Shown piece by piece: positions 21,764-57,428 of a stretch of DNA of 64,000 nt; position 1 is the first letter of the stretch, and each line of letters opens with the position of its first letter. Position numbers and translations under genes: made by a program. Origin of the DNA: Acidobacteriota bacterium (GTDB lineage: Bacteria > Acidobacteriota > Thermoanaerobaculia > Thermoanaerobaculales > Sulfomarinibacteraceae); the NCBI GenBank assembly GCA_013152925.1, contig JAADFK010000085.1, positions 1,448 to 65,447 of the forward strand, written 5' to 3'. The notes below the pieces were generated by a model. The model had not been told where the DNA came from and made no database searches. It saw only the letters and a list, made by a program, of their open reading frames with translations.

Positions 21764-22212
21764 CTACCTCGGGAACATGGCGGGAAGGCAAGGGATCGGC
21801 ACCTCCGCGGCACAGGGCCCGATTCCCGGAACAGGTCCTCTCGTCTCATACCTGGTGTCCGTCACACGGGATACCTTCGGCGTTTCGACGCGCATTCCGG
21901 CCAGCCAGCCGCCCTCGTCGTCGAGGAGCTGTACGAGATTGAAGGACTCTGCTCCCTCCCCGGTGTTGTCCCGAGCGAAGGCACCGGAATTGTGAGGCGT
22001 AAGACAGCCCCCTCGGTGTTCAAGAAGACCACCTCCTGATCCCCGGCGACCCCAAGCGCGGCTCTGCTGGCCTGCCAGAGCGCCGCCTTGAGCTCGGCTC
22101 TGCCGGCCCGTGAAGAGAGGAACGGCCAGTACAACGTTCCCGGCACGGCACAACGACCTCCCGGCCGCAGGACGTTGGGAGGCTCCGGGCCGAGGGCAGC
22201 GTCACTCGCCAA
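21764..22212 (-). pseudogene. Possible frameshifted small SnoaL/DUF4440-like gene
   Basis: Two overlapping minus-strand ORFs (21862..22212 and 21764..22153) read sensibly if joined at a C5/G5 run (22008-22012): ...AELKAALWQASRAALGVAGDQEVVFLNTEG / ...NSGAFARDNTGEGAESFNLVQLLDDEGGWLAGMRVE. Family resemblance is by pattern only. Confidence 0.25.
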
Positions 22213-23188
22213 GATCCGGGCCTCCCCACTTCCTGCCCATCTTGAACCTCCGGAAGACCTCGTGGGCCGCGTCCCAGGGATCCCGGTGCTGCCGGCAGAT
22301 GGTGTCGAGAGCCGTGACGAGGTGCTCGTTGCCGAAGTGGCTGACCACCATCTCCACCTCGCCCGGATCCACCTCCCGGAACCGGCCCTGGAGGAACTCC
22401 CGCATGATCCTGGCGCCGGGGCTCGAGGGGTTGTCCCGGGAGCACATCGACCTGAAGGATGTGACGATTTCCTTCGTCAGCCACGCCCCGTCGTGCCCTC
22501 TCCGGCTGTACACGCGACCGGCCAGGTGCGCTCCCAGCACCACGGCCGTGCTCTCCTCCAGGACCTGGCTCTCGATGCCGTTCCCGTAGCGAGAGAGCCC
22601 CGCCTGATAGAAGAGCGCGTGCACACACTCGTGACCGGCCACGTAGAGGAGCTCGGGCTCCGGCCAGCCGACCGTGGAGTTGAAGGAGACGACCTGGACC
22701 TCCGTCTCGTACGAGCCGCCGACGTAGGGGGGCAGCGGCACCACTCTCACCGAGGACACCCGGATGCCGTGGCCTACGATCGCCAGCAGATCGTGAACGT
22801 CCCGTTCCGCCCGCCGCCGGATGGCCGCGATGCGATCCGCCTCCCGCCGGGCCTCCAGCTGCGCCCGCCCGAAGTGGACCAGGCCAACCGTCACAAGGAG
22901 GGCCGCCACCACGACCCACCAACGTTTCAGGAACCACAACATCGCCCCCAGCCTGGTCTCCCACCACGTCCACCACCTGCGCAGGATGTCGCCGATCCAT
23001 GGATGAGCCACCACGTCTTCCGCCCGTAACGATTTCCGTTTCGGGAAGATAACGTCGCTCGGCCGCGCCGCCTCCACGCTGCGCCGCGCCGAACTTAGCC
23101 GCACGGCGCCCAGACCCTCCGCCGGGTTGTGATCATGCCCGAACTGGCCGTCGCGTCCCGGAGGATCGGTCATCCACCTCTCTCCCAT
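22202..23188 (-). CDS. Membrane-anchored HExxH protein (putative metallopeptidase)
   Basis: ORF 22202..23524. The start was moved to ATG 23188 (or 23173) to clear the upstream gene. TM helix WWVVVAALLVTVGLVHF. HExxH in LLYVAGHECVHALF. Confidence 0.6.
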   Translation of the reverse strand: MGERWMTDPPGRDGQFGHDHNPAEGLGAVRLSSARRSVEAARPSDVIFPKRKSLRAEDVVAHPWIGDILRRWWTWWETRLGAMLWFLKRWWVVVAALLVTVGLVHFGRAQLEARREADRIAAIRRRAERDVHDLLAIVGHGIRVSSVRVVPLPPYVGGSYETEVQVVSFNSTVGWPEPELLYVAGHECVHALFYQAGLSRYGNGIESQVLEESTAVVLGAHLAGRVYSRRGHDGAWLTKEIVTSFRSMCSRDNPSSPGARIMREFLQGRFREVDPGEVEMVVSHFGNEHLVTALDTICRQHRDPWDAAHEVFRRFKMGRKWGGPDLGE

Positions 23189-23318
23189 CGCACGGGACGA
23201 GACCGGACCTCGAGCGTCCAGGCTGCCCGAGCAACAGGAAGCCTCGGCCCGCCCGTTCCCTTGCCGCCTAAAATCCTCGCGCCCATCGCCCCAGGAGCAG
23301 TTCTCCATCCCGCGCTTA

Positions 23319-26111
23319 TCATTTGAAAGGGCGGGTGACCTGTAGCCCTTGAGGCCACTGAAGGAAACTCCCATTCTTGAAGACGATGTCGGAGGCGAAG
23401 TTGGTGGACGATTTCGCAGTTGACTGACCAAGCCAATCGCGGTCGATCGTTCCGTCCTTGCCGGGGCTGACGATGAGGTAGGATTCGCCGTCGCTCCAGA
23501 TGCGGAGGGGGTGTCCCCAAGCATCGGTCTGGGGACACTTCTTCACGTAGGCGGGAGAAAGCACGGGCGCGAGTGCAGCAGCATCGACCCAAGAACCGCC
23601 AGTGTACGGGTACCGATCGTAGTCCACTTGGTACATCAAAATCGCTGTTGCCAGAGTCCTCATTGTTGCCATGGTCCGAGTTTGCTTCTCATGGTCCACG
23701 GTAGTCTTGCGCATCGAGGTTGGACTACCAGCTTCACGTTCGGACAGATTCTGTTTCGATTCAACCCTGAGATCACATCCTTGAAGCACGAGGCGCCACC
23801 GCTCTCTCTTGGTGGGGCAACATAGTCCGTCGGCTGGATAGTGAACCGTTATATTGGCCAGGATCTCTTCATTCCCAATCCTCAGGGAATCCACGCGCGC
23901 ACGATCTTCGATAAACAGATTGCCACAGGAGACCGGCCGTCCATCCTTGTCCACGAAAACCACGATCGAAACCCATCCAGCCGTACCCCAGGTTTGTTCG
24001 ACAACAGCTATTGCCGCATCATCAATTCCGTCGTTGTTGAGATCGCCTCGTGCAACAGAATCTCGAAGAAACCAGACCCCTGCAAGCGGTTCGCGATCGT
24101 CAATTCCTCCTCGGCCATCAGATTCCCATCGCCCGCCTTTGAGCTGGTATTCTCCTAACTTGACGTTCCAAAGCGCTTCCGTCGGAAATGGTCGCCTTGT
24201 CTTGGGTCCGTGGTGTGTCTTCCCCCCAACGAGGCGGATCTCGGCCTCGTCCTTGTGGATGGTTCCAGGGTGGCCGATGGCGCCGTAGCGGGCGCCGGCC
24301 TCAAGCACGAAGACCGCCGAGCCGTCCGCTGCGCCGCAACTCTTGCACTTTTCGAGCCAGGTCCGGGCGTTGGTTGCCCGGTCTGGACTGATGATGTAGA
24401 TCCTATCAGGGCGGAGCTTGTGAAGCTGCTCCGCGCTCAGGAGCTCCCGGGTTTCGAGCACATCGAAACGGTTCGCTGCGCTGAGGACGGTGAAGGTCAG
24501 CGGCTCGGAGTACCGGTTGACATCGATGGGCCGGCCGTTCCGTTTCACCTTGAGGAAGTCGAAGATGACGACGGGCAGAATCATCGGTTTTCCAGGCCCG
24601 CTGAGCAGCTCCTCGCCGTCGAAGCCCTCCGATGGCCGGAGGGCTGGCGAGAGCGGCAGGACCATGACCGGATCGAAGAGGCGGTGGGCCTTGCGCTGAA
24701 GGTAGGTTGTGAGCGCTGTCAACGCCGCCATGCCGGGGTTCGGTCCTCCCGAAACGGCGCCCTTGATCAGCACGTCCCAGCCGAATCCCTCGAGAAGATC
24801 CTTCAAGCCTGTCGCTCCCGCTGCCTTGGCATCCTCCCAAGAGGTATCGCCATCACCACCGACGAGCGGCTTCTTGATGGAAAACACGGTGCCACCATTC
24901 CCAACCATGACAAAGCAGGGGCTGTCCGGATCCGGAGGGTTCGGCACACCGCAGGGCCAGGTGAGGAATCGACCGTTGGCGTAGATGATGTCCGTATCCC
25001 ACGATTCCGATGGCCCCAGGTATCTCAACGATGTCTGCATCTCACCATCCGCCCCGGCGGAATAGATTCCGTAGGTGTTCCCGTCCCCTTTCAAGAGGAT
25101 GGGGTGCCCCCAGCCATCCTTCGCGGAGAGGCCGGTGGCACCCACGCTGCGCAACCCGTCGAGGATGGCCGCCACGGGCGTGGCGGGCTGGCCCTCAGAG
25201 GCGTCAGTCGAAACCGGGAAGCTTCCGTGGACCTGCCGGTACTTCTCCAGGGCGAGCCCCAGCGCCTTCATCCGATCCAACGTCGTCCGCGCCGCCTCCT
25301 CCTGAAAGAGGCGACCGTACTCGCCGGCGCCCGTGTTCGGCTCCACATCCTGACCCGCCGGGGGAGCCCCCAGCCTCGATCCCCCCTCCGGCGGCGACCC
25401 GCGCTCTTGCTGGACCTGTTCGGGGGATGTCTCACTCTTGGCCGGGGGAGGCGTTGCGGGGTTGCGCTGGATCAGCTGGTCGATCATGGCCTGGGGAGTC
25501 CCGGCCTGCCAGCGTGGGGGGGCCTGGAGGCCGGCGGCACGGGCCACCTCCATGAGGACGGTGACGCAGTCGCTCGTGGTCAGGCGGTAGGGGTGGGACT
25601 CCCACCGGCGGCGGACGGCCTCCGTGCGGCGGAAGGCGTCCCGGCTGACGCGGACCTCGAGGATGTCGCCGATCTCGTGTCGCGTCAGGAGATCATCCCG
25701 GAGCTTGCCCGGCACCGGGCCCACGACCTGCCGGACCACGCCGAGCGTATCCCCCTTGACCGGGTAGAAACCGAAGGCCTCGGCCGAGCTGAAACAGCGA
25801 TCCGGATCCTCCGAGGCCCACACCACGAAGGCGTGCCCCGGCAACTCGCTCCACCCGGGGCTCTTCCTCCAGCAGAAGAGCAGGGAATAGCTACCCTGCC
25901 CGGAGCTGTCCCGCCGGGCGATGACCCGGTCGATCTCGAGCGCCGGCGCCAATGGGGCCACGAAGCAGCACAACACCAGGAGTCCTGCAATCGCCGACCG
26001 CTTCCCTATTGGACACCCCTTCGACGACACTGTGCCATCACGTGACGGTCGCATCACCATTCGATACATGTGTCGATCCTCCATCTTGTCGTTCCGTTGG
26101 TTGCGAGCCAC
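23319..26111 (-). CDS. Large secreted multidomain protein: N-terminal His...Cys (permuted papain-like?) domain, two GspG-like modules, FG-GAP-like segment
   Basis: 930-aa ORF with signal-like KRSAIAGLLVLCCFVAPLAPALE. GHAFVVW ... TSDCVTVL lies at 25512-25934. GspG-like modules are at 24954-25304 (DGWGHPILL...SAGADG) and 23322-23681 (DAWGHPLRIW...SPGKDG). Also DLNNDGIDDAAIAV. The exact start is uncertain (M1-M20). Confidence 0.7.
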   Translation of the reverse strand: MARNQRNDKMEDRHMYRMVMRPSRDGTVSSKGCPIGKRSAIAGLLVLCCFVAPLAPALEIDRVIARRDSSGQGSYSLLFCWRKSPGWSELPGHAFVVWASEDPDRCFSSAEAFGFYPVKGDTLGVVRQVVGPVPGKLRDDLLTRHEIGDILEVRVSRDAFRRTEAVRRRWESHPYRLTTSDCVTVLMEVARAAGLQAPPRWQAGTPQAMIDQLIQRNPATPPPAKSETSPEQVQQERGSPPEGGSRLGAPPAGQDVEPNTGAGEYGRLFQEEAARTTLDRMKALGLALEKYRQVHGSFPVSTDASEGQPATPVAAILDGLRSVGATGLSAKDGWGHPILLKGDGNTYGIYSAGADGEMQTSLRYLGPSESWDTDIIYANGRFLTWPCGVPNPPDPDSPCFVMVGNGGTVFSIKKPLVGGDGDTSWEDAKAAGATGLKDLLEGFGWDVLIKGAVSGGPNPGMAALTALTTYLQRKAHRLFDPVMVLPLSPALRPSEGFDGEELLSGPGKPMILPVVIFDFLKVKRNGRPIDVNRYSEPLTFTVLSAANRFDVLETRELLSAEQLHKLRPDRIYIISPDRATNARTWLEKCKSCGAADGSAVFVLEAGARYGAIGHPGTIHKDEAEIRLVGGKTHHGPKTRRPFPTEALWNVKLGEYQLKGGRWESDGRGGIDDREPLAGVWFLRDSVARGDLNNDGIDDAAIAVVEQTWGTAGWVSIVVFVDKDGRPVSCGNLFIEDRARVDSLRIGNEEILANITVHYPADGLCCPTKRERWRLVLQGCDLRVESKQNLSEREAGSPTSMRKTTVDHEKQTRTMATMRTLATAILMYQVDYDRYPYTGGSWVDAAALAPVLSPAYVKKCPQTDAWGHPLRIWSDGESYLIVSPGKDGTIDRDWLGQSTAKSSTNFASDIVFKNGSFLQWPQGLQVTRPFK

Positions 26112-26169
26112 CCGGTACGGGACGTGCTCTCCGCGAACGGGCCATCAGGTAGCCCGGGGAATTGAGCTC

Positions 26170-29100
26170 TCACATCCGAATCCCGTAGATGACCAGATCC
26201 TCTCCCTGGAGCACGGCCAGCTTTATCGGATAGCGGCGTCTCGGTTTGCCACGATATACGAGCTTGCCATCGCTGCGAGAAACGACGATGCCGCCAAGCG
26301 GGGGCATCGCCCCACCTGTCCAACCCGGTGCCAAGACGTGGCCATCCGCAGCACGGCGGCAACGAACCCGACCCGCCGAGTATCGTTTGAGCTCGAAGAC
26401 ATTGGATTCCATCAGGGATGTTGCAAAGCGGACGGTCCGGTCAAGCTCAGACCGAAAGGTCTGCTGTAGACGGGCCAAGAGCGCCGCGTCGAGCCCGACA
26501 CCCTCCAACTCCACGCTGGAGCCGGCGAGGTGGGACCGCAATGTTCCAGTCCCCAGTTGCCGTATCTCATGACGGAGCAACAGGATTTCCACGAGGGCCA
26601 CGAGCACGTGTTCTGCCTCCATGGCAACGGAAATCGGAATGGAGGCGATGGGGATCGCCCCAGGCTCCTGCCGAGGAAAGGTCCGTACACGGGCCGCCGG
26701 TGGAGGTGGGGAGGGAGCTGGCGAACGGGAAACCGACTCACTCACCCTCGGCGTGCGCTCCACGTCGATCAGAGGCTCCTTAGTCGTGCCCGCGCCAGTT
26801 CCTGGCTCCCGCAGGCTCGGCGCGACAGCTGGAGGAGGACCGGCCTCGTCAAGTGCGCTCGGCGGCACGTCGTCGGCTCTCACCGATTCCACATCTTCGA
26901 AGGAAACCTCTTGTTCCCGGGTCTTTGTATCGGGCTCCCCCGCACTCCGACATTCCTCTTCCCGTTCCCCCATGCCGGAGACGTCCTGAGCACCCGGTGT
27001 TCCGATGAGCCGTTCCATGGGAATGGCCGGCGTCCGGTAGACATCCTGCTCCCACGATGTGACATCAAGCCCTGGCACGTCCGGTTGTGGGGCACGCCCT
27101 CCCACGAAACGTCCCTCTTCGAACTGGCCAAGTTCAACTCCCGCCGGTCCCAGCAAAATGAGAGATTGTCCACGGCGTACCACCTGGTATCTGCCGCGGG
27201 CCCCCCAACCTTGAAGCACAACACCCCCCTCTCCTGCCGGTACGACGGGGGCTGCCACCACCCGGTCACCCGAGGCGACGATTGCCTCTTCAAGGAGCTC
27301 CGGGGTCAGCCACGGATTTTCCGGATCGCCGGCCAGTGTGGGGGCAACGGCCAGGGGGTCCATCTCCACACCGGATCTTGATTCCGGCTTCCACCGCCGC
27401 AGGTTTCTTTCCAGTGTCAGGAGCAAGCTCAGGAAATCCGGAAAACTCCCAAGAACGATGGCAATGCCCAGCGCCGTTCCAAGACCGCCGACAACGATAC
27501 CGAGGATTGCACCGCCGCTCAGATGATCTGAGGCCACGATGACCACCAGCGCTGTACCAGCCAGTACACCAAACACCGAGAACCAGGCCAGGATTCGACC
27601 CCAGATCAGGTAGGCCGAGATCCCAGGAAACCCCGGTGCCACTGAGACCCGACCCAAACCTTCAGGTCTCATGTTGGCCTCGATACGGAGGAGATTTCGG
27701 ATGAATCGGGGAACGACTGCGAGAATCAGAAGCATCATCACGGCCAGCGGAACGAAGATCAGCACCACGACCATCCCACCCCGTGGCAGCTCCGCCAGGA
27801 GCTTGAGCGCAACCACCACCGTTGCAGCTCCGCCCAACCACAAGAGAAGCGTCATCAGTCCGATCAGCGCTTTGAGCCACTTGAAATCCAGACTCCTGGG
27901 AGTATTTCCACCCGACGTGGCCACAGCCACATCCTCGGCCATTTGAAAGATGTCCACCAGACCCAACAAGCCCAGCCCATCCACGAGAACGACAGCAAGT
28001 AAGGAGAAGGTACTCCTCAGGATGTCGCCAAGCGCCCCGTTGGATAGCTGCAACATCCATGCATGAGTTCCGGATCTCAGAGCGACCCACATGAGCCCTA
28101 CGGCAAGAACCACCAGAACGACTCCACGGAGGAATATCAAGGCCGGCATGTGGACGCGGCGATACCGGTCGCCTCCCATGCCCTCACCCACTCGAAGTAG
28201 TGTCCTCATGGCGTCTGCCCGCACCCACGAAAAAAACGCGGCAAACAGCGCGATCAGCAGGAGAACGAAGATGTAGACAGCGGCCCCCCGGGCGCGAAGA
28301 CTTATGGCACCCCCCAACAGGAGCGCCAGCGAACGCAAAGCCTGTGCGACAAAGAGATCCCACCAGGGAGCACATATCGCTTTCACACCAGCTGGAAGGT
28401 TCCTGAGATCACCGACCCTCAACAGGGCTGGGAAGCCAAGCGCCAGTGCCACGCTTCCGAATGCCATGGCTTGCGGGAAGTCGTCGCGGCGAATTGCCCA
28501 CCAGGTACGGACGCCTGCGATGCAAGAGCCCGTCAGTAGTGCCACGACCCCGACTGCCGCGATGGCCGCATTCCCCTCGACAACAAGCACCAGAGCGATC
28601 AACGACACAAGGCCAAGCACACTCCACCCAGAAGGAAGCCGCCTTCTCCGGGTATCGCGGACAGCCAAGGTCATTTGCCAGCCAGAGAAGCTCATGGCTC
28701 CCAGGAATGCAAGGCTCAACCACACCCTCCACCATCCTGGCAGAAGGCCTCCATGAACCGTAAACGTTGGGGGAACCAGGGCCTCCACCACATGCAACGT
28801 TCCAGCCACCAGAAGGGAGACCGCCGCCAAACGCCCGAGGTCGGAAGCCAGGAAGAGCCCACGGTAGCGGCCACGCGGAGGTGTGCCACGACCCACGGAC
28901 GCTTCCCAACTGAGGAGTATTGCCCAAAGGTCCGGAATGAGCATGAAAACGAAGAAAATGATGAGCGCACTCACCATCCCCGCGACGAACACGATCGCCT
29001 GGATCGCGCTGGACGAGCGTGTCAACGCCACGACAAGCCGCAACTCCACCACGGCGAGCAAAACAACCAACAAGACCCTTACGAGCACCACCGCTGGCCG

Positions 29101-29172
29101 CAGGAGGCTGGTCTCCCATAGCCGGCTCAACAGTCCAGCCGTACTCCGTGGGCGTGTTGCCGTGTTGGCCAT
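26170..29172 (-). CDS. Polytopic membrane protein (~16 TM helices) with ~400-aa soluble C-terminal region, unknown function
   Basis: ORF 26170..29238. ATG 29172 is preceded by GAGGAGGA and lies 1 nt after the upstream stop. The N-terminal ~600 aa are almost continuous hydrophobic helices. No motif recognised. Confidence 0.7.
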   Translation of the reverse strand: MANTATRPRSTAGLLSRLWETSLLRPAVVLVRVLLVVLLAVVELRLVVALTRSSSAIQAIVFVAGMVSALIIFFVFMLIPDLWAILLSWEASVGRGTPPRGRYRGLFLASDLGRLAAVSLLVAGTLHVVEALVPPTFTVHGGLLPGWWRVWLSLAFLGAMSFSGWQMTLAVRDTRRRRLPSGWSVLGLVSLIALVLVVEGNAAIAAVGVVALLTGSCIAGVRTWWAIRRDDFPQAMAFGSVALALGFPALLRVGDLRNLPAGVKAICAPWWDLFVAQALRSLALLLGGAISLRARGAAVYIFVLLLIALFAAFFSWVRADAMRTLLRVGEGMGGDRYRRVHMPALIFLRGVVLVVLAVGLMWVALRSGTHAWMLQLSNGALGDILRSTFSLLAVVLVDGLGLLGLVDIFQMAEDVAVATSGGNTPRSLDFKWLKALIGLMTLLLWLGGAATVVVALKLLAELPRGGMVVVLIFVPLAVMMLLILAVVPRFIRNLLRIEANMRPEGLGRVSVAPGFPGISAYLIWGRILAWFSVFGVLAGTALVVIVASDHLSGGAILGIVVGGLGTALGIAIVLGSFPDFLSLLLTLERNLRRWKPESRSGVEMDPLAVAPTLAGDPENPWLTPELLEEAIVASGDRVVAAPVVPAGEGGVVLQGWGARGRYQVVRRGQSLILLGPAGVELGQFEEGRFVGGRAPQPDVPGLDVTSWEQDVYRTPAIPMERLIGTPGAQDVSGMGEREEECRSAGEPDTKTREQEVSFEDVESVRADDVPPSALDEAGPPPAVAPSLREPGTGAGTTKEPLIDVERTPRVSESVSRSPAPSPPPPAARVRTFPRQEPGAIPIASIPISVAMEAEHVLVALVEILLLRHEIRQLGTGTLRSHLAGSSVELEGVGLDAALLARLQQTFRSELDRTVRFATSLMESNVFELKRYSAGRVRCRRAADGHVLAPGWTGGAMPPLGGIVVSRSDGKLVYRGKPRRRYPIKLAVLQGEDLVIYGIRM

Positions 29173-49400: not shown

Positions 49401-52400
49401 ACTGCTGGGAAGTGGGATTCCAATATCTGCCATCGTCCACACGTTGAATCATGACGTCGAAAGCATCCACGTGGCCGATACATTCGTGTGCGTCGAAATC
49501 GAGTTGATGCGTGGCATCCGTCAGAAAACCATTTGTCAACAACCACTGGAATACCCCTATGTTGGCCGGGCTTTCATCCTGCCACGCGGCCTGACTGCTC
49601 GGAGCCGTTCCCACGGTTTGTACCGGGTCCTCCGACGTGCCACTGTTGGGGCTGACCGTTGCCGTATGAGTTACGGTTATCGGAACGTCATCGTTGACCG
49701 GCGGAACGATCACTTGGAAGACCGCCATACCATCGCTGTCGGTGATAACAGGCATGCTCGTAAGGATGGTCTCCTTCGCGTAGTCTTGTGGGTCGTTTGG
49801 ATCGAGGAACTTGTTGAGCTCGACGCGGGCGTTGACCACCGGCTGGTTGTTCTCGCCCATGAGCGTGACAGTCACCTGGACGGTTTCTCCGGTATCCACG
49901 ATGCCGTCGCCATTGCAATCGCTGCCGTCCGTCGTACCGGCGACCGGGCTCGAATTGCCCATGACAACTGTTGACGCAGCCTCGTCGAGGCGCCACGATG
50001 TCTCATCGTTCACCGTGGTTTCCGAACGGTCACCCACTGTGTTCTGGTCGCTCTGGTTGTACAGGACCGCGCTCCACTTGCTCAGGCCAATTGTCTTGGT
50101 ATGGACGGTGAAGGTTGCCTCACCATTCTCATTCGTGCTGGCCTGGATGGGTGTGCTGTCCGAAGGCGTGTCTTCGAGCCGGTCGGAGGACAGCTCCACC
50201 GTAAAGCCAGGCCAAACGGGGGAGTCATCCGCTTCCTTCAACGTCACCGTCATGGTTTCGTTGCGGCCAACGACGCTATCTTCCGCGACCGCCGACTCGA
50301 TCTTCCGCACCTGCCATTCACATTGAACCGACGTGTCCAGATCAATGCTGGACAATACGCCCCCATCCGCATTGACCGTTGACCTCTTTGCATACTCGAC
50401 GCTGTAGGAGGAAATACCAGGAGCATGGGAGGTTACTTCGAAGGAAGCTCTTCCGTCGGCATCCGTCACCTGCCACTGCGGGTAGTCCAAACCGTCACCC
50501 GCACCCTCGAAACGGAAATAATACGGCCTCGAGCTCTTCACGGTAACCGAATACCCCGGCAGGGGCCGGCCGTTGCTATCCCTTAACGTGATATCCACCC
50601 TCTCCCAAGCACCCACTTCCGAAGATTCTTCTGCAACTGAAATCGCGGAGTGCTGGGAGTCCGGAAGTGCCGTCCCGTAGCCCTCGGGCTGTACCACAGG
50701 GATGAAGAGCGAGTCATTTGTCACGTTGTCGGTCCTGGTCACATATGCCGTCAACTCACCATCCTGAGCCGCCACTTCAAGCAGGCAGCCCTGCAGAAGG
50801 CTCATGCCGTTGCTATCCACCTGCTCATTGAGAGGCACCAACGGGGTTGAGAAGAAGGAAGACAAGCAGGGAGCCGTGTCCTCCTCGCAGTTCAAGCGTC
50901 CCAGCTCATTCTGGCGCAGGGCATGGGGCGCCAGATCGACCGTTACCGCCATCGATATCACCTGGCTACCATCAGCACCTTTGAGCTGGAGAGCCGCACC
51001 CTCATGATCCATGAGCCGGAGCACAGCCGTGGCCTTCTTGTCGCCGACGTTTGCCAGTCCGAAGCTCTCTCGAATGGCGTTCGACCTGAGGTCCAACGCG
51101 AAGATCACGCCGGCATCACTACCGGCGGTCAGAACCTGGGGCGTGGCGGCATACCCGGGCACCCTCTGTCCATATGTGCATGGGACCGTTCCATCCTCAC
51201 CCTCGCAGGTGGCCAGCGTGTAAGTTCGGGAGGTCACCAACACATCGTCCTTCCCCGGACCATCGATTTCCACGAGCAGAAGCCCCTTACCGGCGCTGAA
51301 ATTCGGATCAAGGTAACGGCAGACGTCGTGAATGGAAAGGGTTTGCCCGGCCAGCAAGGACACTGGGGCCATGGGCGGGTTGGGAATCTCATGCTCCCCA
51401 TCAGTGGGGAAGAAACGGAAGCCGTACGTTACGTCCTTGTTTCCTGTATTGGCAAGCGTGAGATCAGTCACCCAGAAACTGTTGTTCTTCCCAGGAAGCC
51501 GGGCAATCACGGGTACGATGACCCTGTCCCCTCCCGAGCCCAGAAGCCCGGTTGTGCGTCCCGGAAGCGAAATGGGGTCGTCGGAGTCGTTATCGACCTG
51601 GCTGACCATCACGGAGTATTTGACGCCATCGGGCCCCACGGGCTCCACATTGAGGCGTGCTGGATGCACCGAGTTTCCGAGGCTGACGTAGAGCGGCGTT
51701 CGAGGGGGTACTGTGACCTCCTGATTCCAGATCTCGTCGCCTGTGTCGTTCAACGCTACAATCTTGAAGGATGCTTCCTGGTCCCCGAAAACCGTCAAAT
51801 GAAGGTTGACCCGGGTCGAGATTGCGTGATCACCGTCGTTTCCTGGAATCACCAGAGCCACACGCAAAGGCGTTGGAATGACAGCAACCCAATTCAGAGG
51901 TTGCGCGACGACGAACTGGCCCCGGCTGGCCACGATAGGGTTGTCCGAATTTGGGTCAGAAACCTCGGCAACCGAATACACTTCCCCAGCCATCATCGGG
52001 AACTTGGCGGGCCAGGGATCTTGCACGGTCGTACCAGTTGTCGTCACGGGTTTGACGTAGATCCAACCTTTCGAGGCGGTCACGATCCCGAAGAGCTGGT
52101 CCAGGATGTCGTCATACTGGCGCAGAGAGTTTGGACGGCCTTTGGCCTCGAGGCGAAGACGACGAACGATCGCTGTTTCGTGATCTTGCTCCGGATGGAG
52201 AAAAACATTTGAAGCCTGATTGTTTGGGTTCCCAGGCACGCCGGCCTTGGTGATGACGTAACCCACCTCGTACGTCCGGGCCTTGTTCTCCTGGTTGAAG
52301 AACCACGCCGCAGTTTTCCACACCACGCCACCAACACCGGGCTGTGCCGCGACCACCGGCAATACTGTCATCGGCTCGGAACCGTCTACCGAAGGTGGAG

Positions 52401-55053
52401 CTTGCGTCATATTTACAGCCAATGGAATCTTGGCCGTGACCGGTTCCGAGAACAGATCGTCGGTGGTCATCCGGAGGTAGTACTGGTGTGAGGCCAGCAC
52501 GTTGGCATTCCCAGCAATATCAAACTGCAGGGTTGCCTCATTTTCATCAACGGAAGACGTTGCATCTTCCACAACCACCTTGGCATCCTTCAGAACGACA
52601 CTATCCGGAGTTTCGTTTCCCGGCATGGGTACGAGGTCGAGCTTCGCAGTGAAACCGGGACCACCACGGTTCGTCCTCAGTTTGAGGGTAAATTGGTCTC
52701 CCTGTCGACCGTAGACGGTGTACGCCTTTAATAGTCCGTTCCGGTCCAAGGGAGCCACCAACACGCGCTCCACACACCGCAACCTCATGTTCCCGCCATC
52801 CCCGGTGCCAAGGAGCCGAATCACGACTCGATTCTCGTCGGAGTGCAAGGTTGGAAGCGTGTACGAAATGTCGGTTTGGAAAGAGCTCCGGCTCTCAAGG
52901 TCAATGGTCTTGCCGGCCAGTTCACGAGCCCAACTTGGTTCAACGGAGGCAGTACAGAAATCGGTCTTAGCCGAAGCTTTGACCAAGAGCACCTGTAAGG
53001 TCACTTCAGCAGGGAGTACACCCGCATTGAAAAGCTGGACGCCCTTGTGCCGATACTCCTTGTTGTTTTTCTGGAAGAAAGGATCTGGCCAGGGGAAGGT
53101 TTCCTCTGTTGCATTGAAGCCGACGTCTGCCACCGCTTCGATCTGGAGCATACGATCACGCTCAGAGAAAAGGCGACATTTCTGTCGAACGTTACCGGTC
53201 ATCTTGTAGAGGTCGCCCCCTTTGGCCTGAGCATCGATGAGGTCGCCATCCTCTACCTGCTGCCAGGGAACAAGCAGGACCTTGATCGTACCCACCCCAT
53301 GAACCGAGGAAGGAAGCATCACAGTCAGGGGTATGTTCGTGCCGAGTTGGTTGCTGTCGATCTTGTAAACGCCACGATACTTCTGTTTGGTCTGATCGAC
53401 GTTGGAGGAAAGCACCTCGAGCCGCGCCTCGCGACTCGTGTCGGGGCCCTTGCTGGCCAGTTCTCCCGAGAGGTCCACATCGTCGTCGGGATCGGCGTAT
53501 GTAACCACCGCCGCCACAGGATCGGGACAGTTCCCCAGTTCCGTCGCATTGAGGGTAACCGTGATGGGCGTGCCTGCTATCTCATGGGCCGGGGCCGGCT
53601 TCTCAGGCCCCTCTGCCGTGGGGTCGTACCACGGCGCACTGTCAGGCCCCACAACGGCGAGCTCGTAGCCGGGGATCGCCGGAGAGCCGTCCAGTTCCAA
53701 AACGTTGTTCTCGAGATGGATGTCATACGTAGTGTGACCGTCCTGCACCTGCGGCGTGAAGCCATCGATTCTGATCCAATGACCTTTCCATTGAGTGCTG
53801 TCACCGGCCCAACGCACGCCGTACCATGCCGGATCGTAAACATAGAGGAAGAGCCGCCCGTCCCGCTCTGGTGCCGGGCCACCGAGATACCGGTTCTCCA
53901 GTCGGATTCGCCCCTCACGCTCGATGCGGGCCACCATGTTGTACAGATTGTTCCTGCTGAGTGGAGCATTGCCCCAATATCCCCACACCCCGTAGACCGG
54001 ATCTCCGAGCTCGCCCACTTCGTTGGGGAAATTTGTGCTTTCGTCGAGAGAGGTCATTGGATTCCCCGGCATCGTACTGAGGGGACTGGAGTAAAGTCGA
54101 AAATAACCAGAACCCGTTTCGTCTCCATGAACCGCCAATGGATCCTTGAGCTTCAAGGTGTCTACCTCAGAAGCAACATCGGCTGGCCCGGCGGCGGCAT
54201 CCTCCACATACCAGATATCGAAGGCCACTTGGTTGACACTGCACCGAAGGTCTTTGGACGGACCGCCGGCCGTATCATCTTCCGCCAGCCTCACCTCGTT
54301 GACCCACGCGTCTGTAAGGTCAGCGAGCTCACCCTGGCATTGGTTCTTTGCATCCCACCTGAGAGAAGGAACGGTAGTCGCCGGAGGCGGATTCAGCTGC
54401 CGGCTATCCGTTTTGTCGGCGTCAATGAGGTAGCCATCGCTTAGATCAGTCTCGTTCACATCCTCGAGATCTCCTGGCCCGGGTCCCATGATTCGCAGGT
54501 CAACGGGGTTTTTCTCGTAACCAGTACAAATGGATGCCAGATCTCCTATCAACTTCTCTTGATCAGCCGTTTGCACCGGGTTGTAGTTTTCGTCTACGAC
54601 CACCAATGAAAGGACAAGGTTGCCACGACCGAGCCCCTGCAGCAGGGAAAGCTGAGCGGAATCGACCTCGAGCGAATGTTCTCCAGGTTCCAACTCAGTG
54701 ACATCAGTGATCTTGAGCTCGTTCGCCTCGATAACATCGTCGGAAGAGCCCAGCAAGACCACATGCTCGCCATCATTCAACACGAAATCGCTGCCAACAC
54801 GGTACTTTAATAGAAAAACCTTCGACCCATCCGGGAGACCTTGAGGGCTTTTCGCCCACGGCCTCACGAAGAGAATCTCGAGATTGCTCTCGTCCATTAC
54901 GGAACGGCCTGATGTTCCCTCATCCACTGACGCCAGCGCCTTGGAACCGGCCTGCCTTCCCGAAAGAATCATCTGTGCCCACGATGGGGGCGCGCCAAGG
55001 GCTAGGACGATGAGCCCGAACACCAATACCACTAGACGGCTGTGAGCTTTCAT
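46429..55053 (-). CDS. Giant secreted cadherin-like / Ig-like repeat protein (2874 aa), putative adhesin
   Basis: ORF 46429..55296. Start ATG 55053 follows AAGGAGGAA. Signal peptide MKAHSRLVVLVFGLIVLALGAPPSWAQ. Three invasin-type Ig-like segments (...TDADGRASFEVTS, ...NENGEATFTVHT, ...DSDGMAVFQV). Two 96-aa cadherin-like/VCBS-type repeats (DSYSTNEDTQLTV..GVLxNDTDVDG...NAVNDPP). One dystroglycan-type cadherin-like module (FTDPDGDALSYSASGLPGGLT). Confidence 0.88.
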   Translation of the reverse strand: MKAHSRLVVLVFGLIVLALGAPPSWAQMILSGRQAGSKALASVDEGTSGRSVMDESNLEILFVRPWAKSPQGLPDGSKVFLLKYRVGSDFVLNDGEHVVLLGSSDDVIEANELKITDVTELEPGEHSLEVDSAQLSLLQGLGRGNLVLSLVVVDENYNPVQTADQEKLIGDLASICTGYEKNPVDLRIMGPGPGDLEDVNETDLSDGYLIDADKTDSRQLNPPPATTVPSLRWDAKNQCQGELADLTDAWVNEVRLAEDDTAGGPSKDLRCSVNQVAFDIWYVEDAAAGPADVASEVDTLKLKDPLAVHGDETGSGYFRLYSSPLSTMPGNPMTSLDESTNFPNEVGELGDPVYGVWGYWGNAPLSRNNLYNMVARIEREGRIRLENRYLGGPAPERDGRLFLYVYDPAWYGVRWAGDSTQWKGHWIRIDGFTPQVQDGHTTYDIHLENNVLELDGSPAIPGYELAVVGPDSAPWYDPTAEGPEKPAPAHEIAGTPITVTLNATELGNCPDPVAAVVTYADPDDDVDLSGELASKGPDTSREARLEVLSSNVDQTKQKYRGVYKIDSNQLGTNIPLTVMLPSSVHGVGTIKVLLVPWQQVEDGDLIDAQAKGGDLYKMTGNVRQKCRLFSERDRMLQIEAVADVGFNATEETFPWPDPFFQKNNKEYRHKGVQLFNAGVLPAEVTLQVLLVKASAKTDFCTASVEPSWARELAGKTIDLESRSSFQTDISYTLPTLHSDENRVVIRLLGTGDGGNMRLRCVERVLVAPLDRNGLLKAYTVYGRQGDQFTLKLRTNRGGPGFTAKLDLVPMPGNETPDSVVLKDAKVVVEDATSSVDENEATLQFDIAGNANVLASHQYYLRMTTDDLFSEPVTAKIPLAVNMTQAPPSVDGSEPMTVLPVVAAQPGVGGVVWKTAAWFFNQENKARTYEVGYVITKAGVPGNPNNQASNVFLHPEQDHETAIVRRLRLEAKGRPNSLRQYDDILDQLFGIVTASKGWIYVKPVTTTGTTVQDPWPAKFPMMAGEVYSVAEVSDPNSDNPIVASRGQFVVAQPLNWVAVIPTPLRVALVIPGNDGDHAISTRVNLHLTVFGDQEASFKIVALNDTGDEIWNQEVTVPPRTPLYVSLGNSVHPARLNVEPVGPDGVKYSVMVSQVDNDSDDPISLPGRTTGLLGSGGDRVIVPVIARLPGKNNSFWVTDLTLANTGNKDVTYGFRFFPTDGEHEIPNPPMAPVSLLAGQTLSIHDVCRYLDPNFSAGKGLLLVEIDGPGKDDVLVTSRTYTLATCEGEDGTVPCTYGQRVPGYAATPQVLTAGSDAGVIFALDLRSNAIRESFGLANVGDKKATAVLRLMDHEGAALQLKGADGSQVISMAVTVDLAPHALRQNELGRLNCEEDTAPCLSSFFSTPLVPLNEQVDSNGMSLLQGCLLEVAAQDGELTAYVTRTDNVTNDSLFIPVVQPEGYGTALPDSQHSAISVAEESSEVGAWERVDITLRDSNGRPLPGYSVTVKSSRPYYFRFEGAGDGLDYPQWQVTDADGRASFEVTSHAPGISSYSVEYAKRSTVNADGGVLSSIDLDTSVQCEWQVRKIESAVAEDSVVGRNETMTVTLKEADDSPVWPGFTVELSSDRLEDTPSDSTPIQASTNENGEATFTVHTKTIGLSKWSAVLYNQSDQNTVGDRSETTVNDETSWRLDEAASTVVMGNSSPVAGTTDGSDCNGDGIVDTGETVQVTVTLMGENNQPVVNARVELNKFLDPNDPQDYAKETILTSMPVITDSDGMAVFQVIVPPVNDDVPITVTHTATVSPNSGTSEDPVQTVGTAPSSQAAWQDESPANIGVFQWLLTNGFLTDATHQLDFDAHECIGHVDAFDVMIQRVDDGRYWNPTSQQWISSQAWFSATGQPQLDPAKEENTWNGNNNWGDLTLDMANRSNAEGFLVVWTVRATDGGGNTSESSNASNPIPVDYLVPEITGGFVSREGAGIGGDLPVAGEGFDIWSTAREYNPASGESWYQLQGGGASGNPTAAPSAALSGSPDVLLQPVTVSSVTLGGDQELAALGGRLLDQAAHDSSAVLRPDWAVFVRPLSPDGFQQGEADNPNSGNVGCGATGLNVFLQRNSADPAVARSTLQYAFLLDADGNGAISAGDYWLAVDSSGNRIWRDQTTGPVYRIASGWGVASGDWANALALPVNDANGNPVMPVTSDHQILVYAHNPQENVAPKPGEDPNTVSDPATVVTEGLPTIETFVLGNGDAALHECETGGIHGTFSDDDGQVAEVRLLIQSGNEYFDGASNQWVTTETWFTVSHDDAAHTWSWPIPHELLAGHVNHDVRISVLAVDNAEGTCTACQGEIHSCNTPTLTATLANDDPAVAFDNASYPDMDDDQAVTGTMSDSEYNSCGDASDYSLQIQIEAADSGKYWNGSAWQSSATWVPITVVDWTAGTWSYTLPSGFHDHLGGSNVTLKVETTDDLGATTSATSSGNIANIPPQVAPDSYSTNEDTQLTVVAPGVLQNDTDVDGVTLTAVLDTTVSHGTLTLNSDGSFTFTPAANYNGTDSFTYHANDGHADSATVTVTITVNAVNDPPVAAADSYSTNEDTQLTVAAPGVLTNDTDVDGDALTAVLDATVSHGTLTLNSDGSFSYTPAANYNGTDSFTYHANDGHADSATVTVTITVNAVNDPPTTTGISDQTNNDGDAMSLNVSTSFTDPDGDALSYSASGLPGGLTIGGITGVIGGTIAADASASSPYTVTVTANDGNGGTVSTSFTWTVNNPAPVVTIDGPSPFVLNDGTTIAGTVVDDDTISGVTLTIEDTDAGLFWDQISGTWAGIPSNNPATGTNSWTLILGAGFHTLTNSGHNISVVAASGDGQGAVGFSPAQTGTIAP
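47038..47613 (-). repeat. Two tandem 288-bp near-identical coding repeats (96-aa cadherin-like modules)
   Basis: Repeat 1 is 47038-47325 and repeat 2 is 47326-47613 by codon arithmetic. Protein copies differ at roughly 10 of 96 residues. The DNA is visibly near-identical over long runs. Confidence 0.9.
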
Positions 55054-55096
55054 CTCGGTTTTCCTCCTTCGATGACAATCGGACGCGTCATACTCA

Positions 55097-55112
55097 AGCA
55101 AGGAGGGTGCCA
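55097..55112 (-). promoter_or_regulatory. Sigma-54 promoter of the giant-gene operon
   Basis: The minus strand reads TGGCAC-CCTCC-TTGCT (exact TGGCAC-N5-TTGC), 44-59 nt upstream of ATG 55053. An AT-rich tract lies immediately upstream (55113-55180). Confidence 0.7.
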
Positions 55113-55255
55113 ATAGACAAAACAGTGAGATTTCGTATGTTATAGCTGGGAAGTTGGTAGGTAGCCGACGAATTCTTGCTGCCCCGCTCATCATCCTATG
55201 AGTCAAACCCGAACTCTCGTCGCTCCTCAATTCAACCAACATGTCGCCGCAATGG

Positions 55256-55269
55256 GGTTCCCGGGAACC
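55256..55269. promoter_or_regulatory. Perfect 14-bp palindrome GGTTCCCGGGAACC, candidate enhancer (UAS)
   Basis: Located about 145-157 bp upstream of the -24 element. The 10-mer GGTTCCCGGG also occurs about 130-145 bp upstream of the other sigma-54 promoter (7441-7450). Confidence 0.3.
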
Positions 55270-55577
55270 TACTCCGCCCGTCGCTGCCGTTACCAACTGT
55301 GGCTGATCGTGGCGACGCCACTGACGATTCCCTCATATCCTGTCAGACCGGCTGTTATCTCCCGGGCCACTTGGCTCCGTGATCCAATTACGCTCCCCGA
55401 TCAACACCGAAAGCCATGACCCGGAGGCTTCGATTCCTTCCAGCCCTCCATGAGAGAAATGACACCAGCCGTAACTCTTCTGTTGGGTATCCATCCCGTG
55501 AGGCAATTCGGTTCCGAGGAAGAAAAATCCCTGTTACATCAACCAGGGTCAATGATGTTTCTTGGCAATCACTCGCG

Positions 55578-57428
55578 TCATTCGAGCTCCAGGCGCTTCA
55601 TCTTCATTGCCAAGCCATTGCGCGAAATGCCCAGCAACTTGGCAGCCTTGGAGCGATTGCCCTTTGTTCTGGCAAGAGCGATTGTGATGAGCTTCCGTTC
55701 CAATTCGCTGAGACGGGTTTCGAGAACGAGATTGCCACCAGGATCCGGTTGATCAAGCATGCTGGCCTCATCGGGGAATAGAACGAAGTGGGAAAGAAGC
55801 CTTGAACTGATAGCTTGCCCCTCTGGACAGAGGTAAACGAGACGACGAACCTCATGTTCGAGCTCACGCACGTTGCCGGGCCACGGAGCGGATACGAGCG
55901 CCTCTAGCGTCTTGACCGTGAGGCCACGAATCGATTTGCAAAGCTCTCGCGCACAACGACGCAGGAAATGTTCCACCAGTGCAGGAATGTCTTCCCGTCG
56001 CTCACGCAGCGGTGGAATCGGAAGAATAAACCCCGCGAGCCGGAAATAGAGATCCCGCCGGAACGTACCTGATGCCAATCGTCGTTCAAGATCCGTGTTA
56101 GTGGCCGAGATTACACGAACGTCGACGTCCAGCGGCCAGCGACCACCCACTGGCGTGATCTCCATCTCCTGGAGAACTCTCAGAAGCTTCGCTTGGAGAT
56201 CTGTGGACATATCTCCAATCTCATCAAGGAAGAGGACACCTCCTTCTGCCAGCTGAAACTTCCCTTTTCTCGCCTCAACACCCGTCGCGACGCCGCGCTC
56301 GATCCCGAACAACTCGGCCTCAAGGAGTTCTGAAGGTATGGCGGCACAGTTCACGGCCACAAAAGGTCCATCGCTACGGTCTGACGATGCATGAAGCAAA
56401 CGGGCCACGAACTCCTTACCCACACCAGTCTCTCCGGTGATAAGAACGGGCAGGTTACCCTTAAGTAACTGGCGAATCTGATCGTACACAACCTTCATGG
56501 AATCCGACTCTCCGGCTACATATCCGTCCGAAAAATTCAAGTGAGGAAATGTGCGCTTCTCTCCGCTGACTCGCAATGGTGCCAACTCGGACTTTGAGTG
56601 AATAAACATGCGGAGACATATTTCAAGTAGTGGCCCCATCGCCCGAGCGGGTTGGAAACCTCCTAGCAACACAATTCCATACGGGGTTTTTCCAGGGGTA
56701 GCGGTCACGGCCCACGCAATGCTCTCACCTTGCCCTTTCGCACCCGAGAGCATGGTCGCCTCGGATTCTCCAACCTCGGCCACAGCTCTCATTGCAATCC
56801 TCAGGGCGCCATCATCCGGGAAATGAAACGGATCTCCCGAGGCACAAAGCACAATCGGGTCTTCATCTCCCGACCACTGGTAAAGGCAAGCTCCACGTGC
56901 GTCAAGTCCCATGCGAAGAGTCTTCAACGCCAACTCCACGTCCGGGTCATAGGCACCGATCAGAAAACCTGCCACCTTGTTCAATACATTTAGCCATTGC
57001 CGGGACTCTCTGCCTTGATTACCCGCCCGGGTATCTGTGTCGTGTTCCAAGGGGGAAGCCTCATTGTTCGTACCCAGCACCCCGCCTTCCATTGAGATCG
57101 CCAATTCGGCGTCTTTGCGATCAACTTCAGAAAGCAGAAACACTGCCGGCCCGAACCCTATCCACTCGCCAGGACGCACAACCGCCCGCTTCACCTTCGC
57201 ACCGTTGAGGTAGGTGCCATTCTTACTCCCCACGTCTTCCACTTCGATCTGGCCGATTCCAGAACGAACAACAGCGTGTTTCCGCGAAACACCTGCCATG
57301 GGAATAACAATGTCGTTACTCTCGTTGAGACCAACTCGGTACTCGCCCTTTACGAGGTCAAAGATCATGCAACATCCGTCGATCTCCCCAACCAGCCTCA
57401 TGCAACGCTTTTCGTTGTTCGTGCTCAT
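55578..57428 (-). CDS. FHA-GAF-AAA+ sigma-54 enhancer-binding protein with non-canonical GAFTGA loop
   Basis: Start ATG 57428 (MSTNNEKRC...). FHA: VGLNESNDIVIP..GVSRKHAVV...GSKNGTYLNG. GAF-like middle. AAA+ core with GETGVGKE, LFLDEIGD, RRDLYFRL. The GAFTGA position reads GVATGV. C-terminal HTH (RSKAAKLLGISRNGLAMKMKRL). Confidence 0.88.
   Translation of the reverse strand: MSTNNEKRCMRLVGEIDGCCMIFDLVKGEYRVGLNESNDIVIPMAGVSRKHAVVRSGIGQIEVEDVGSKNGTYLNGAKVKRAVVRPGEWIGFGPAVFLLSEVDRKDAELAISMEGGVLGTNNEASPLEHDTDTRAGNQGRESRQWLNVLNKVAGFLIGAYDPDVELALKTLRMGLDARGACLYQWSGDEDPIVLCASGDPFHFPDDGALRIAMRAVAEVGESEATMLSGAKGQGESIAWAVTATPGKTPYGIVLLGGFQPARAMGPLLEICLRMFIHSKSELAPLRVSGEKRTFPHLNFSDGYVAGESDSMKVVYDQIRQLLKGNLPVLITGETGVGKEFVARLLHASSDRSDGPFVAVNCAAIPSELLEAELFGIERGVATGVEARKGKFQLAEGGVLFLDEIGDMSTDLQAKLLRVLQEMEITPVGGRWPLDVDVRVISATNTDLERRLASGTFRRDLYFRLAGFILPIPPLRERREDIPALVEHFLRRCARELCKSIRGLTVKTLEALVSAPWPGNVRELEHEVRRLVYLCPEGQAISSRLLSHFVLFPDEASMLDQPDPGGNLVLETRLSELERKLITIALARTKGNRSKAAKLLGISRNGLAMKMKRLELE

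Follow-up and report, generated by a model that had tools for sequence, protein, structure and literature searches.

A conserved gene module that joins Ser/Thr phospho-signalling proteins, a giant secreted protein and a sigma-54-type promoter in an Acidobacteriota genome

We describe a gene module in a 64,000-nucleotide stretch of DNA (hereafter the window) from an Acidobacteriota bacterium of the Sulfomarinibacteraceae (assembly GCA_013152925.1, contig JAADFK010000085.1, positions 1,448 to 65,447). The module lies within a row of 14 open reading frames (ORFs), numbered here G1 to G14, all on the minus strand and running from 57428 to 22202. On the evidence of gene order, G1 to G12 is one co-inherited unit, real and rare, because the same order is found in different genomic contexts. 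We give about even chances to the reading that these genes form a self-contained module, in which an FHA-type activator, a sigma-54 promoter, a giant secreted protein and an envelope set are combined with a threonine-phosphorylation circuit that gates the production and deployment, or the anchoring, of the giant.

Gene order, conservation and promoter

Behind the activator gene G1, eleven genes (G2-G12) follow one another from 55053 to 26170, one fewer than the twelve counted in a first-pass annotation of this DNA; G13 and G14 come after them. With the chosen start codons, of which those of G9 and G13 are uncertain, the intergenic gaps from G2 to G13 are 72, 16, 54, -4, 40, 22, 56, -4, -1, 1 and 58 nt. 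The limit of 72 nt within the train, the 58-nt gap to G13 and the four coupled junctions all read as that annotation had described them. Two junctions have the form ATGA (38724-38727, G5/G6; 31470-31473, G9/G10), one the form TGATG (30227-30231, G10/G11), and at the fourth the stop and start codons are 1 nt apart (TGA-C-ATG, 29172/29174, G11/G12). The packing, with its overlapping and abutting junctions, is thus operon-like; G2 to G12 are probably transcribed as one long operon from the promoter of the giant gene. In consensus scans, terminator-like or sigma-70-like sites inside the train were not above shuffle expectation, and no second sigma-54-like site was present in any of its intergenic gaps, the weaker matches falling elsewhere.

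The neighbourhood is conserved beyond the window. The full order is carried by two long metagenomic contigs of the Joint Genome Institute (JGI), Ga0172420_10000124 (L001/L012, 77 kb) and Ga0612002_0301 (L002/L013, 58.7 kb), and part of it by two short contigs (L007 and L014); the contigs were reached through homologues of the barrel, the lipoprotein and the giant. The conserved order is FHA-type activator, promoter, giant, lipoprotein, a protein with two FHA domains and an FG-GAP propeller between two transmembrane (TM) helices, PP2C phosphatase, secreted protein, kinase, barrel, secreted protein, vWA protein, atypical kinase and polytopic protein. Protein identities across the long contigs span 27-78%. 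They are highest for the barrel G8 (78% in L001/L012 and 43% in L002/L013) and the FHA-propeller protein G4 (76% and 42%), followed by the activator G1 (59% and 48%), the giant G2 (58%, and 30% over 97% of the length) and G10-G12 (53-54% and 28-37%), while what is conserved of the secreted proteins G6 and G9 is chiefly their position.

The flanking genes differ from locus to locus. The module of the window is flanked by housekeeping genes (lpxC, uvrA, a recN-like gene and hisS), that of L012 by glnA, a toxin-antitoxin pair and a gene for an AMP-binding enzyme, and that of L013 by genes for a transposase and an aldehyde dehydrogenase. The GC content of the module is 0.55-0.65, against 0.70-0.73 for uvrA and recN in the window. 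Because its GC is low relative to the housekeeping flanks, the module has the look of an acquired island of about 40 kb, probably gained horizontally by the source genome. In L013 the gene next upstream of the activator gene encodes a DDE transposase (6313-7575), and in L012 an RHH/PemK toxin-antitoxin pair (2302-2893) is found near the module; these neighbours are consistent with mobility of the module.

We place the core at G1 to G12, because the N-terminal domain of G13 is fused to other modules elsewhere and because neither G14 nor the genes at 18-22 kb of the window are shared. No relatives were found in 185,579 GTDB species genomes scanned with alignments of G4 and of G12. With G4 as query, a scan of JGI metagenomes yielded no more than four distant propeller loci and did not recover the known contigs; the collection scanned thus differs from the protein database. 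All homologue counts are lower bounds, because word-indexed searches missed known members: the L012 lipoprotein (915 aa, 20833-23580) is filed in a 90% cluster under a 34-aa representative and so escaped the search, and the barrel search did not return the G8 of the window itself.

The giant gene is preceded by an exact sigma-54-type -24/-12 element, TGGCACCCTCCTTGC (TGGCAC-N5-TTGC, 55098-55112, minus strand), which lies directly downstream of the activator gene, as the first-pass annotation had it, and 45 nt 5' of the giant-gene ATG at 55053; the ATG itself is preceded by GAAGGAGGA. Such elements are present in 4/4 readable activator-giant spacers, 36-66 nt before the giant start (TGGCACCCTCCTTGCT in the window, TGGCATCGTCTTTGCT in L012, TGGAACGGGGATTGCT in L013 and TGGCACCGTTCTTGCT in L014). 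A promoter-like match arises in only 0.15-0.2% of shuffles per spacer, yet it is present in all four orthologous spacers, and this conservation is the strongest evidence that the predicted operon is sigma-54-dependent. A perfect 14-bp palindrome, GGTTCCCGGGAACC (55256-55269), about 145 bp 5' of the -24 element, could be an activator-binding site and is only a lead; when all four spacers were searched, neither a similar palindrome nor a common 8-mer was shared among them.

Proteins of the module

The product of G1 (55578-57428, 616 aa) is an FHA-type enhancer-binding protein. It had been read at first pass as an FHA-GAF-sigma-54 activator, and the first and last of these domains are recovered by Pfam: an FHA domain (residues 30-93) and a sigma-54 AAA+ domain (Sigma54_activat, PF00158, 208 bits, 305-467), followed by AAA_lid_14 and HTH_8 (573-613). 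The GAF domain is not recovered; neither Pfam (E<=0.01) nor a PDB sequence search found one between FHA and AAA+, and about residues 100-300 are without a family. The architecture is that of the FHA-type activators of Myxococcus xanthus, with an N-terminal FHA domain, a sigma-54 AAA+ domain and a Fis-type helix-turn-helix, which were reportedly described by Jelsbak, Givskov and Kaiser in 2005.

G1 has the Walker A, Walker B and arginine-finger motifs (GETGVGKE, LFLDEI, RRDLYFRL). However, unlike the Myxococcus proteins and enhancer-binding proteins in general, it carries GVATG-V in place of GAFTGA in loop L1 (residues 377-384; 56282-56299), that is, Phe changed to Ala and a one-residue deletion. 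The variant is common to G1 and its orthologs in L012 and L013 (3/3 in the alignment), both of which are encoded directly upstream of the giant gene, whereas the other activator in the window (NtrC-type, 8620-9942) keeps GAFTGA. Changes of the central Phe or Thr of GAFTGA usually abolish sigma-54 activation (PMC3162934; PMC7175178), and TyrR, DhaR and HupR are homologues with a defective motif that are sigma-70-dependent (PMC3162934). Because the canonical motif is absent, a role of G1 as direct sigma-54 activator is less certain. GVATG-V may be a natural variant that still functions; if not, the promoter would be fired by another activator, and G1 would serve some other purpose.

Two further exact TGGCAC-N5-TTGC elements are present in the window, one at 7585-7599 (plus strand) near the start of a DUF2202 gene (7550-8485) and one at 12566-12580 (minus strand), 16 nt 5' of lpxC (12550-11627). 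Because both lie near the NtrC-type activator and two histidine kinases (9939-11249 and 4744-7023), they suggest wide use of sigma-54 in the source organism. Sigma-54 has been described as a controller of the cell exterior (PMC3162934).

G2 (46429-55053) encodes the giant, a predicted secreted protein of 2874 aa with a Sec signal peptide, and it is the first gene behind the promoter in every locus that has the region (window, L012, L013 and L014). Pfam finds three Big_9/cadherin-like repeats (Cadherin_4/5) together with He_PIG at about residues 2400-2760; with relaxed Pfam thresholds, applied to four segments of 700 aa, the only additions were three Big_1 Ig-like domains at about 1480-1750. 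The remaining ~2000 aa match no family, and blastp of G2 showed no internal repeats. Full-length orthologs have 58% (L012), 56% (L014) and 30% identity (L013). No C-terminal domain of type IX secretion system (T9SS) cargo and no other known C-terminal sorting signal was found on G2 with Pfam or NCBIfam. By its sequence the giant may be an adhesion product; that it crosses the outer membrane to the cell surface is conjecture.

The next gene, G3 (43612-46356), encodes a lipoprotein of 914 aa with the lipobox WGC; residues G26-C27-A28-S29 are invariant in orthologs, which have 913-915 aa in L012 and L013. No Pfam or NCBIfam family matches it. The AlphaFold2 model (predicted local distance difference test, pLDDT, 70.5) shows a long TPR-like alpha-solenoid (36-700) and then a C-terminal alpha/beta domain of low confidence, and Foldseek matches are generic TPR/solenoid scaffolds only. 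In L014 (10260-12998) the lipoprotein gene is split in two ORFs (579 and 325 aa), possibly by a frameshift or an assembly error.

The FHA domains, Hanks-type kinase, atypical kinase-like protein, PP2C phosphatase and cytoplasmic vWA protein listed at first pass are all seen by Pfam and topology prediction. G4 (41094-43595, 833 aa) is a bitopic protein with two cytoplasmic FHA-like domains, a TM helix (305-323), a periplasmic FG-GAP propeller, a second TM helix (794-812) and a short tail. Pfam recognises one FHA domain (69 bits), and the second N-terminal region is FHA-like. We counted eight DxDGDG-like repeat segments in the propeller, not the seven first reported. At 76-77% and 42-44% identity, G4 is among the best-conserved proteins of the module. 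The membrane phosphatase G5 (38724-41039; PP2C_2, 36 bits) consists of a PP2C domain (1-260), a P-rich linker, a TM helix (333-351) and a variable periplasmic part with a Pro/Thr-rich (PT) linker, and in its orthologs conservation is limited to the PP2C domain. The Hanks-type Ser/Thr kinase G7 (35046-37031; Pkinase, 123 bits) has a kinase domain (20-267), a TM helix (433-451) and a variable periplasmic domain with a PT linker; Pfam found no vWA match in its periplasmic part.

G10 (30229-31473) encodes a vWA protein (VWA_2) of 414 aa without a signal peptide, which places it in the cytoplasm. Its metal-ion-dependent adhesion site (MIDAS) is intact, with DxSxS (D57, S59, S61), T131 and D159 invariant. 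G11 (29174-30229, 351 aa) is an atypical kinase-like protein with a weak ABC1/Pkinase match. It keeps VAxK, DxxxxN and DAG in the comparison of orthologs, and because these motifs are conserved it is probably catalytically competent, an active atypical kinase. It is translationally coupled both to G10 (TGATG) and to G12 (1-nt gap).

G12 (26170-29172) encodes a polytopic membrane protein of 1000 aa, with about 15-16 TM helices in residues 1-595 and two C-terminal globular domains. It has no family in Pfam or NCBIfam and no match in a profile search of PDB sequences; Foldseek gave no match below E=0.001 to its AlphaFold2 model (pLDDT 58), and an exhaustive phmmer search gave only 10 matches among 1.84 billion cluster representatives. 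One of these relatives, P0068, joins a G12-like TM region and a pair of FHA domains in a single protein. It is encoded in L017 (NCBI GCA_054166445.1, JBSZDI010000024.1, 1-23153), where it clusters with a G4-like protein (two FHA domains and a propeller) and several Ser/Thr kinases, and where a G4-like architecture adjoins a PP2C gene. The fusion and the clustering therefore provide an independent link of G12, G4 and kinases. The L017 cluster differs from the module and may represent a separate FHA/kinase envelope system related to it. It also has PEGA proteins and at least five Ser/Thr kinases, the majority of which are fusions with FGE-sulfatase (C-type-lectin-like) and peptidoglycan-binding domains. 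Other distant loci share single architectures with the module: in L008 a 2xFHA-propeller protein of the G4 type is followed by PP2C, and in L009 a kinase is fused to FG-GAP propellers.

The envelope proteins listed at first pass were also seen: the cadherin/Ig-like giant, the 914-aa lipoprotein, a FadL-like barrel, a protein with about 15-16 TM helices, T2SSG modules and an HECVH protein. G8 (33356-35023), with a signal peptide and the C-terminus ...YIF, is a predicted outer-membrane beta-barrel of a FadL/PorV-like superfamily. Its Toluene_X match is weak (23.0 bits, below the Pfam cut-off of 29.7), and in NCBIfam it reaches 32 bits with PorV2 (cut-off 325) and 30 with PorV_fam (cut-off 90), the match being limited to the N-terminal ~60 residues. 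Most of its homologues carry precomputed PF03349. Distant relatives of the barrel (about 27% identity) are found in L003 (8643-12473), L005 (3830-11464), L015 (3016-8047) and L016 (273-8909). Two of them have a Ser/Thr kinase and a TPR protein as neighbours, one has a caspase-like peptidase near core genes of an extracellular contractile injection system (eCIS), and the remaining one is flanked on one side by a secreted multidomain protein of 1531 aa and on the other by a CsgG-like protein. A universal sub-module of kinase, barrel and TPR protein, held in two of these distant loci and failing in the other two, was dropped.

The exported proteins have no family. G6 (37072-38727), a secreted protein of 551 aa with a PT linker whose start overlaps the G5 stop (ATGA), has 64% identity in L007 and 28% in L001; in L002 its place is taken by a protein of 410 aa that corresponds in position only. 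G9 (31470-33299), an exported or N-anchored protein of 609 aa with long PT linkers whose stop overlaps the G10 start (ATGA), is weakly similar (28-40%) to its positional counterparts in L001 and L002. The tethering of periplasmic domains by PT linkers, proposed at first pass, is seen in G5 (residues 580-662), G6 (336-395), G7 (498-534) and G9 (362-488). The PP2C orthologs of L001 and L002, like the kinase of L001, have the linker at the corresponding position, and the domains beyond it are not conserved.

Downstream of the core, G13 (23319-26111) encodes an N-anchored protein of 930 aa, with an N-terminal domain (45-256) and two GspG-like modules (279-357 and 812-899; T2SSG 39 bits, PDB GspG E=0.017). 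A version of this conserved N-terminal domain lies next to G12 both in L001, where it is fused to FG-GAP repeats, and in L002, where it is on the opposite strand; G13 is an accessory gene. G14 (22202-23188) encodes a protein of about 328 aa with one TM segment, no family and an HECVH motif, the sole HExxH among G1-G14. No ortholog was seen beside the module elsewhere, and its membership is doubtful. The low-GC island reaches past the module, across 18280-22000 of the window, where a protein with a GspG-like globular domain (18280-19305, plus strand), a 353-aa ORF with no family (19879-20940, minus strand) and a thioredoxin-like protein (21185-21751, minus strand) are encoded. None of these was seen beside the module in L001 or L002.

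Comparison with known systems

No product of the module reaches a curated cut-off for secretion families (types 1, 2, 5, 6 and 9) or for pilus, gliding or defence families in Pfam, NCBIfam and PADLOC, and PDB sequence searches and two fold searches (G3 and G12) placed no gene in a characterised machine. The absence of known secretion, pilus and gliding core genes asserted at first pass is therefore borne out.

One close parallel in logic is the switch of the Pseudomonas aeruginosa H1 type VI secretion system (H1-T6SS; PpkA/PppA/Fha1 and TagQRST), whose threonine-phosphorylation pathway was reportedly worked out by Mougous in 2007, Hsu in 2009 and Casabona in 2013. Both place the genes of a membrane Hanks-type kinase, a PP2C phosphatase and an FHA protein beside those of envelope proteins, an outer-membrane lipoprotein among them. 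In the H1-T6SS, phosphothreonine read by FHA gates an envelope apparatus, and by analogy the same logic may apply to the module. However, the vWA domain of the module is a separate cytoplasmic protein, G10, and not a periplasmic part of the kinase as in PpkA; the FHA protein is itself bitopic with a periplasmic propeller, and transcription is linked to an FHA-type sigma-54 activator. No T6SS core component (TssA-M, Hcp, VgrG, ClpV) was matched among G1-G14 in Pfam or NCBIfam. The one T6SS-related match, to the NCBIfam TagH model, is due to the FHA domain alone and, at 44 bits, stays below the cut-off of 120.

The vWA, kinase, FHA and PP2C families are also found together elsewhere. Deinococcus radiodurans DRA0331-DRA0334 is an operon of vWA, Ser/Thr kinase, FHA and PP2C genes (preprint 10.64898/2026.01.23.701218), and an actinobacterial kinase-PP2C-vWA triad, as well as vWA with kinase and PP2C in conflict systems, has been described (PMC7159879). 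Likened by domain families, these operons and the module both co-encode the set with a standalone cytoplasmic vWA protein; in the module its MIDAS is intact and all four families lie in one predicted operon. The Deinococcus and actinobacterial operons are small cytoplasmic modules tied to DNA-damage signalling or GTPase systems, whereas the module has its kinase, phosphatase and FHA protein all anchored in the membrane, with periplasmic domains, and sets them amid a giant, a barrel, a lipoprotein and a 16-TM protein. A core NTPase of the MoxR, STAND or GTPase type was not found by Pfam in G2-G14, the only AAA+ protein being G1. PADLOC-DB 2.0 gave only generic kinase-domain matches, for G7 and G11, and nothing for eight other products.

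With the Glt/Nfs machinery of Myxococcus the likeness is thematic only. The Nfs inventory comprises the FHA protein NfsG, the TPR lipoprotein NfsE, the TM-TPR protein NfsD and the outer-membrane proteins NfsA/B/C/H (PMC2875238), and by analogy the module could be said to share an inner-membrane FHA protein, a TPR lipoprotein, outer-membrane barrels and a large adhesin. In contrast to Glt/Nfs, it has a kinase, a phosphatase, a vWA protein and polytopic proteins and lacks a TolQR/ExbBD-like motor and TonB_C; none of its products matches a TolQ/TolR/ExbB/MotA-type motor or TonB_C in Pfam or NCBIfam.

The barrel G8 and its homologues resemble the 14-stranded barrels of the FadL/PorV/UPF0164 kind, matching PF03349 and, at the N-terminus, PorV models, with scores under all curated cut-offs. 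Unlike FadL, G8 has no fatty-acid or hydrocarbon catabolic genes near it, and no T9SS core component (PorK/L/M/N, Sov, PorU) was matched in the module products (Pfam, NCBIfam). No secretin, GspE/PilB, GspF or prepilin peptidase of type II secretion or type IV pili was matched either. Only GspG-like globular modules were seen (G13 and the ORF at 18280-19305), and these have no N-terminal prepilin helix. A full-text literature search found no paper that joins FG-GAP, FHA domain, phosphatase and outer membrane. We conclude that the vWA/kinase/FHA/PP2C set and FHA-type activators are known themes, and that the envelope gene set attached to them here is unassigned to a known machine. The first-pass proposal of an undescribed envelope system thus holds up, whereas its reading as regulated adhesion or surface assembly, with the giant at the cell surface, stays conjectural.

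Possible function and alternative readings

In the module as we read it, the envelope set would comprise the lipoprotein G3, the barrel G8 and the exported proteins G6 and G9, with the G4 propeller and the G5 and G7 ectodomains on the periplasmic or outer-membrane side; the inner-membrane circuit would comprise G7, G5, G4 and the translationally coupled G10-G11-G12. The periplasmic domains of G7 and G5 and the propeller of G4 would sense an envelope or surface cue, or the giant itself. G7, and possibly G11, would then phosphorylate threonines of partner proteins, the FHA domains of G4 and G1 would read these marks and G5 would erase them. Phospho-dependent recruitment would gate a G10-G11-G12 membrane complex, and the FHA domain of G1 would feed back onto transcription of the operon; G1 adjoins the -24/-12 promoter, suggesting a coupling of kinase to sigma-54. 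The output would be the production and deployment, or the anchoring, of the giant, which could be either output or antenna. What the analysis establishes is the set of genes and their order, the promoter element, and the domain architectures with their conservation; a single transcript, the pairing of kinases with targets and any bearing of the circuit on where the giant goes are proposals.

A bolder version seems rather doubtful to us: G3-G12 might be a new trans-envelope secretion or anchoring route for the giant, with G12 as engine or conduit gated by phosphothreonine and FHA, and with a GVATG-V activator that works with sigma-54. Gating of G12 in this way is suggested by the FHA-G12 fusion in P0068.

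Several observations weigh against the proposed module function. G1 may not be the activator that fires the giant-gene promoter. The periplasmic parts of G5 and G7 are unconserved and G6 and G9 are poorly conserved, which argues against a rigid machine. No outer-membrane translocator for a 2874-aa protein is recognisable among the module products, and deployment of the giant could equally be periplasmic. An integrin-like analogy of propeller and vWA domain was rejected on topology, because the vWA protein G10 is cytoplasmic. Given the weakness of the G12 model and of the C-terminal part of the G3 model, G12 and this domain of G3 may still be distant homologues of known families. The census covers only about eight contigs, every one from a metagenome, and is a lower bound.

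G1-G12 might instead be purely an envelope-signalling island, in which the membrane kinase and phosphatase, the FHA-propeller protein, the TPR lipoprotein and the barrel would make up a trans-envelope sensor of cell contact, envelope stress or a surface polymer. Transcription and cytoplasmic phospho-signalling would be its sole output, with the giant as an extracellular or periplasmic ligand-binding antenna instead of a cargo and G12 as a signalling scaffold or channel. We regard this as unlikely, yet worth serious attention: FG-GAP propellers recur as extracytoplasmic modules of FHA proteins or kinases in the unrelated L008, L009 and L017, two of the four distant barrel relatives have only a Ser/Thr kinase and a TPR protein, and no other part of the module, beside them, the variable periplasmic parts of G5 and G7 are like typical sensor domains, and a translocator-like component was not found among the products. 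However, proteins of 2874 aa and, in the polytopic G12, 1000 aa are a heavy investment for a sensor, and the position of the giant gene, first behind the promoter in all loci, is typical of an output gene. A Glt/Nfs-like trans-envelope assembly machine, motor-less or cryptically powered and serving surface translocation, gliding-like adhesion or coat assembly, appears improbable. The thematic match to the Nfs inventory (PMC2875238), with G3 as a TPR-like lipoprotein by fold, G4 as inner-membrane FHA protein, G8 as barrel and G2 as adhesin-like giant, is set against the absence of motor and TonB_C matches given above and a periplasmic part of G4 that is a propeller and not TonB-like.

An equally small chance falls to a conflict, predation or defence island, in which the circuit would control G12 as a membrane effector and the giant would recognise foreign cells or phages. 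Its low GC amid housekeeping genes, the transposase beside the module in L013 and the toxin-antitoxin pair beside it in L012 fit such an island, as do vWA proteins with kinase and PP2C in conflict systems (PMC7159879), the distant barrel relative that adjoins eCIS-core and caspase-like genes, and the L017 kinases fused to FGE-sulfatase (FGS) domains. Yet PADLOC gives only its generic kinase-domain matches, Pfam and NCBIfam find neither a core NTPase (MoxR, STAND or GTPase) nor an effector domain of the nuclease, TIR, caspase or pore-forming kind, and the gene content is constant, unlike the variable effectors of such systems. Strongly disfavoured, and to our minds very improbable, is a chance juxtaposition of an adhesin gene and its own regulator with unrelated genes, the spacing being that of a compact genome. 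Weak or absent conservation of G6, G9, G13 and G14 would agree with it, but eleven genes and the activator keep an identical order at 27-48% identity in a different genomic context, start and stop codons overlap at the junctions, and the FHA-G12 fusion and co-clustering in L017 tie members of the set together.

The practical weight of the module is limited for now: it is uncommon, all its carriers are uncultured and a phenotype has yet to be linked with it. It defines orphan families for structural and functional work, namely G12, the solenoid lipoprotein G3 and most of the giant. A canonical -24/-12 promoter paired conservedly with an activator that lacks GAFTGA poses a concrete problem for work on sigma-54. 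Should the proposed mechanism prove right, the module would add to the envelope structures that eukaryote-like Ser/Thr phospho-signalling controls, of which the T6SS has been the main example so far, and it would be unusual in that its kinase, phosphatase and FHA set is all membrane-anchored and has a direct line to sigma-54 transcription.

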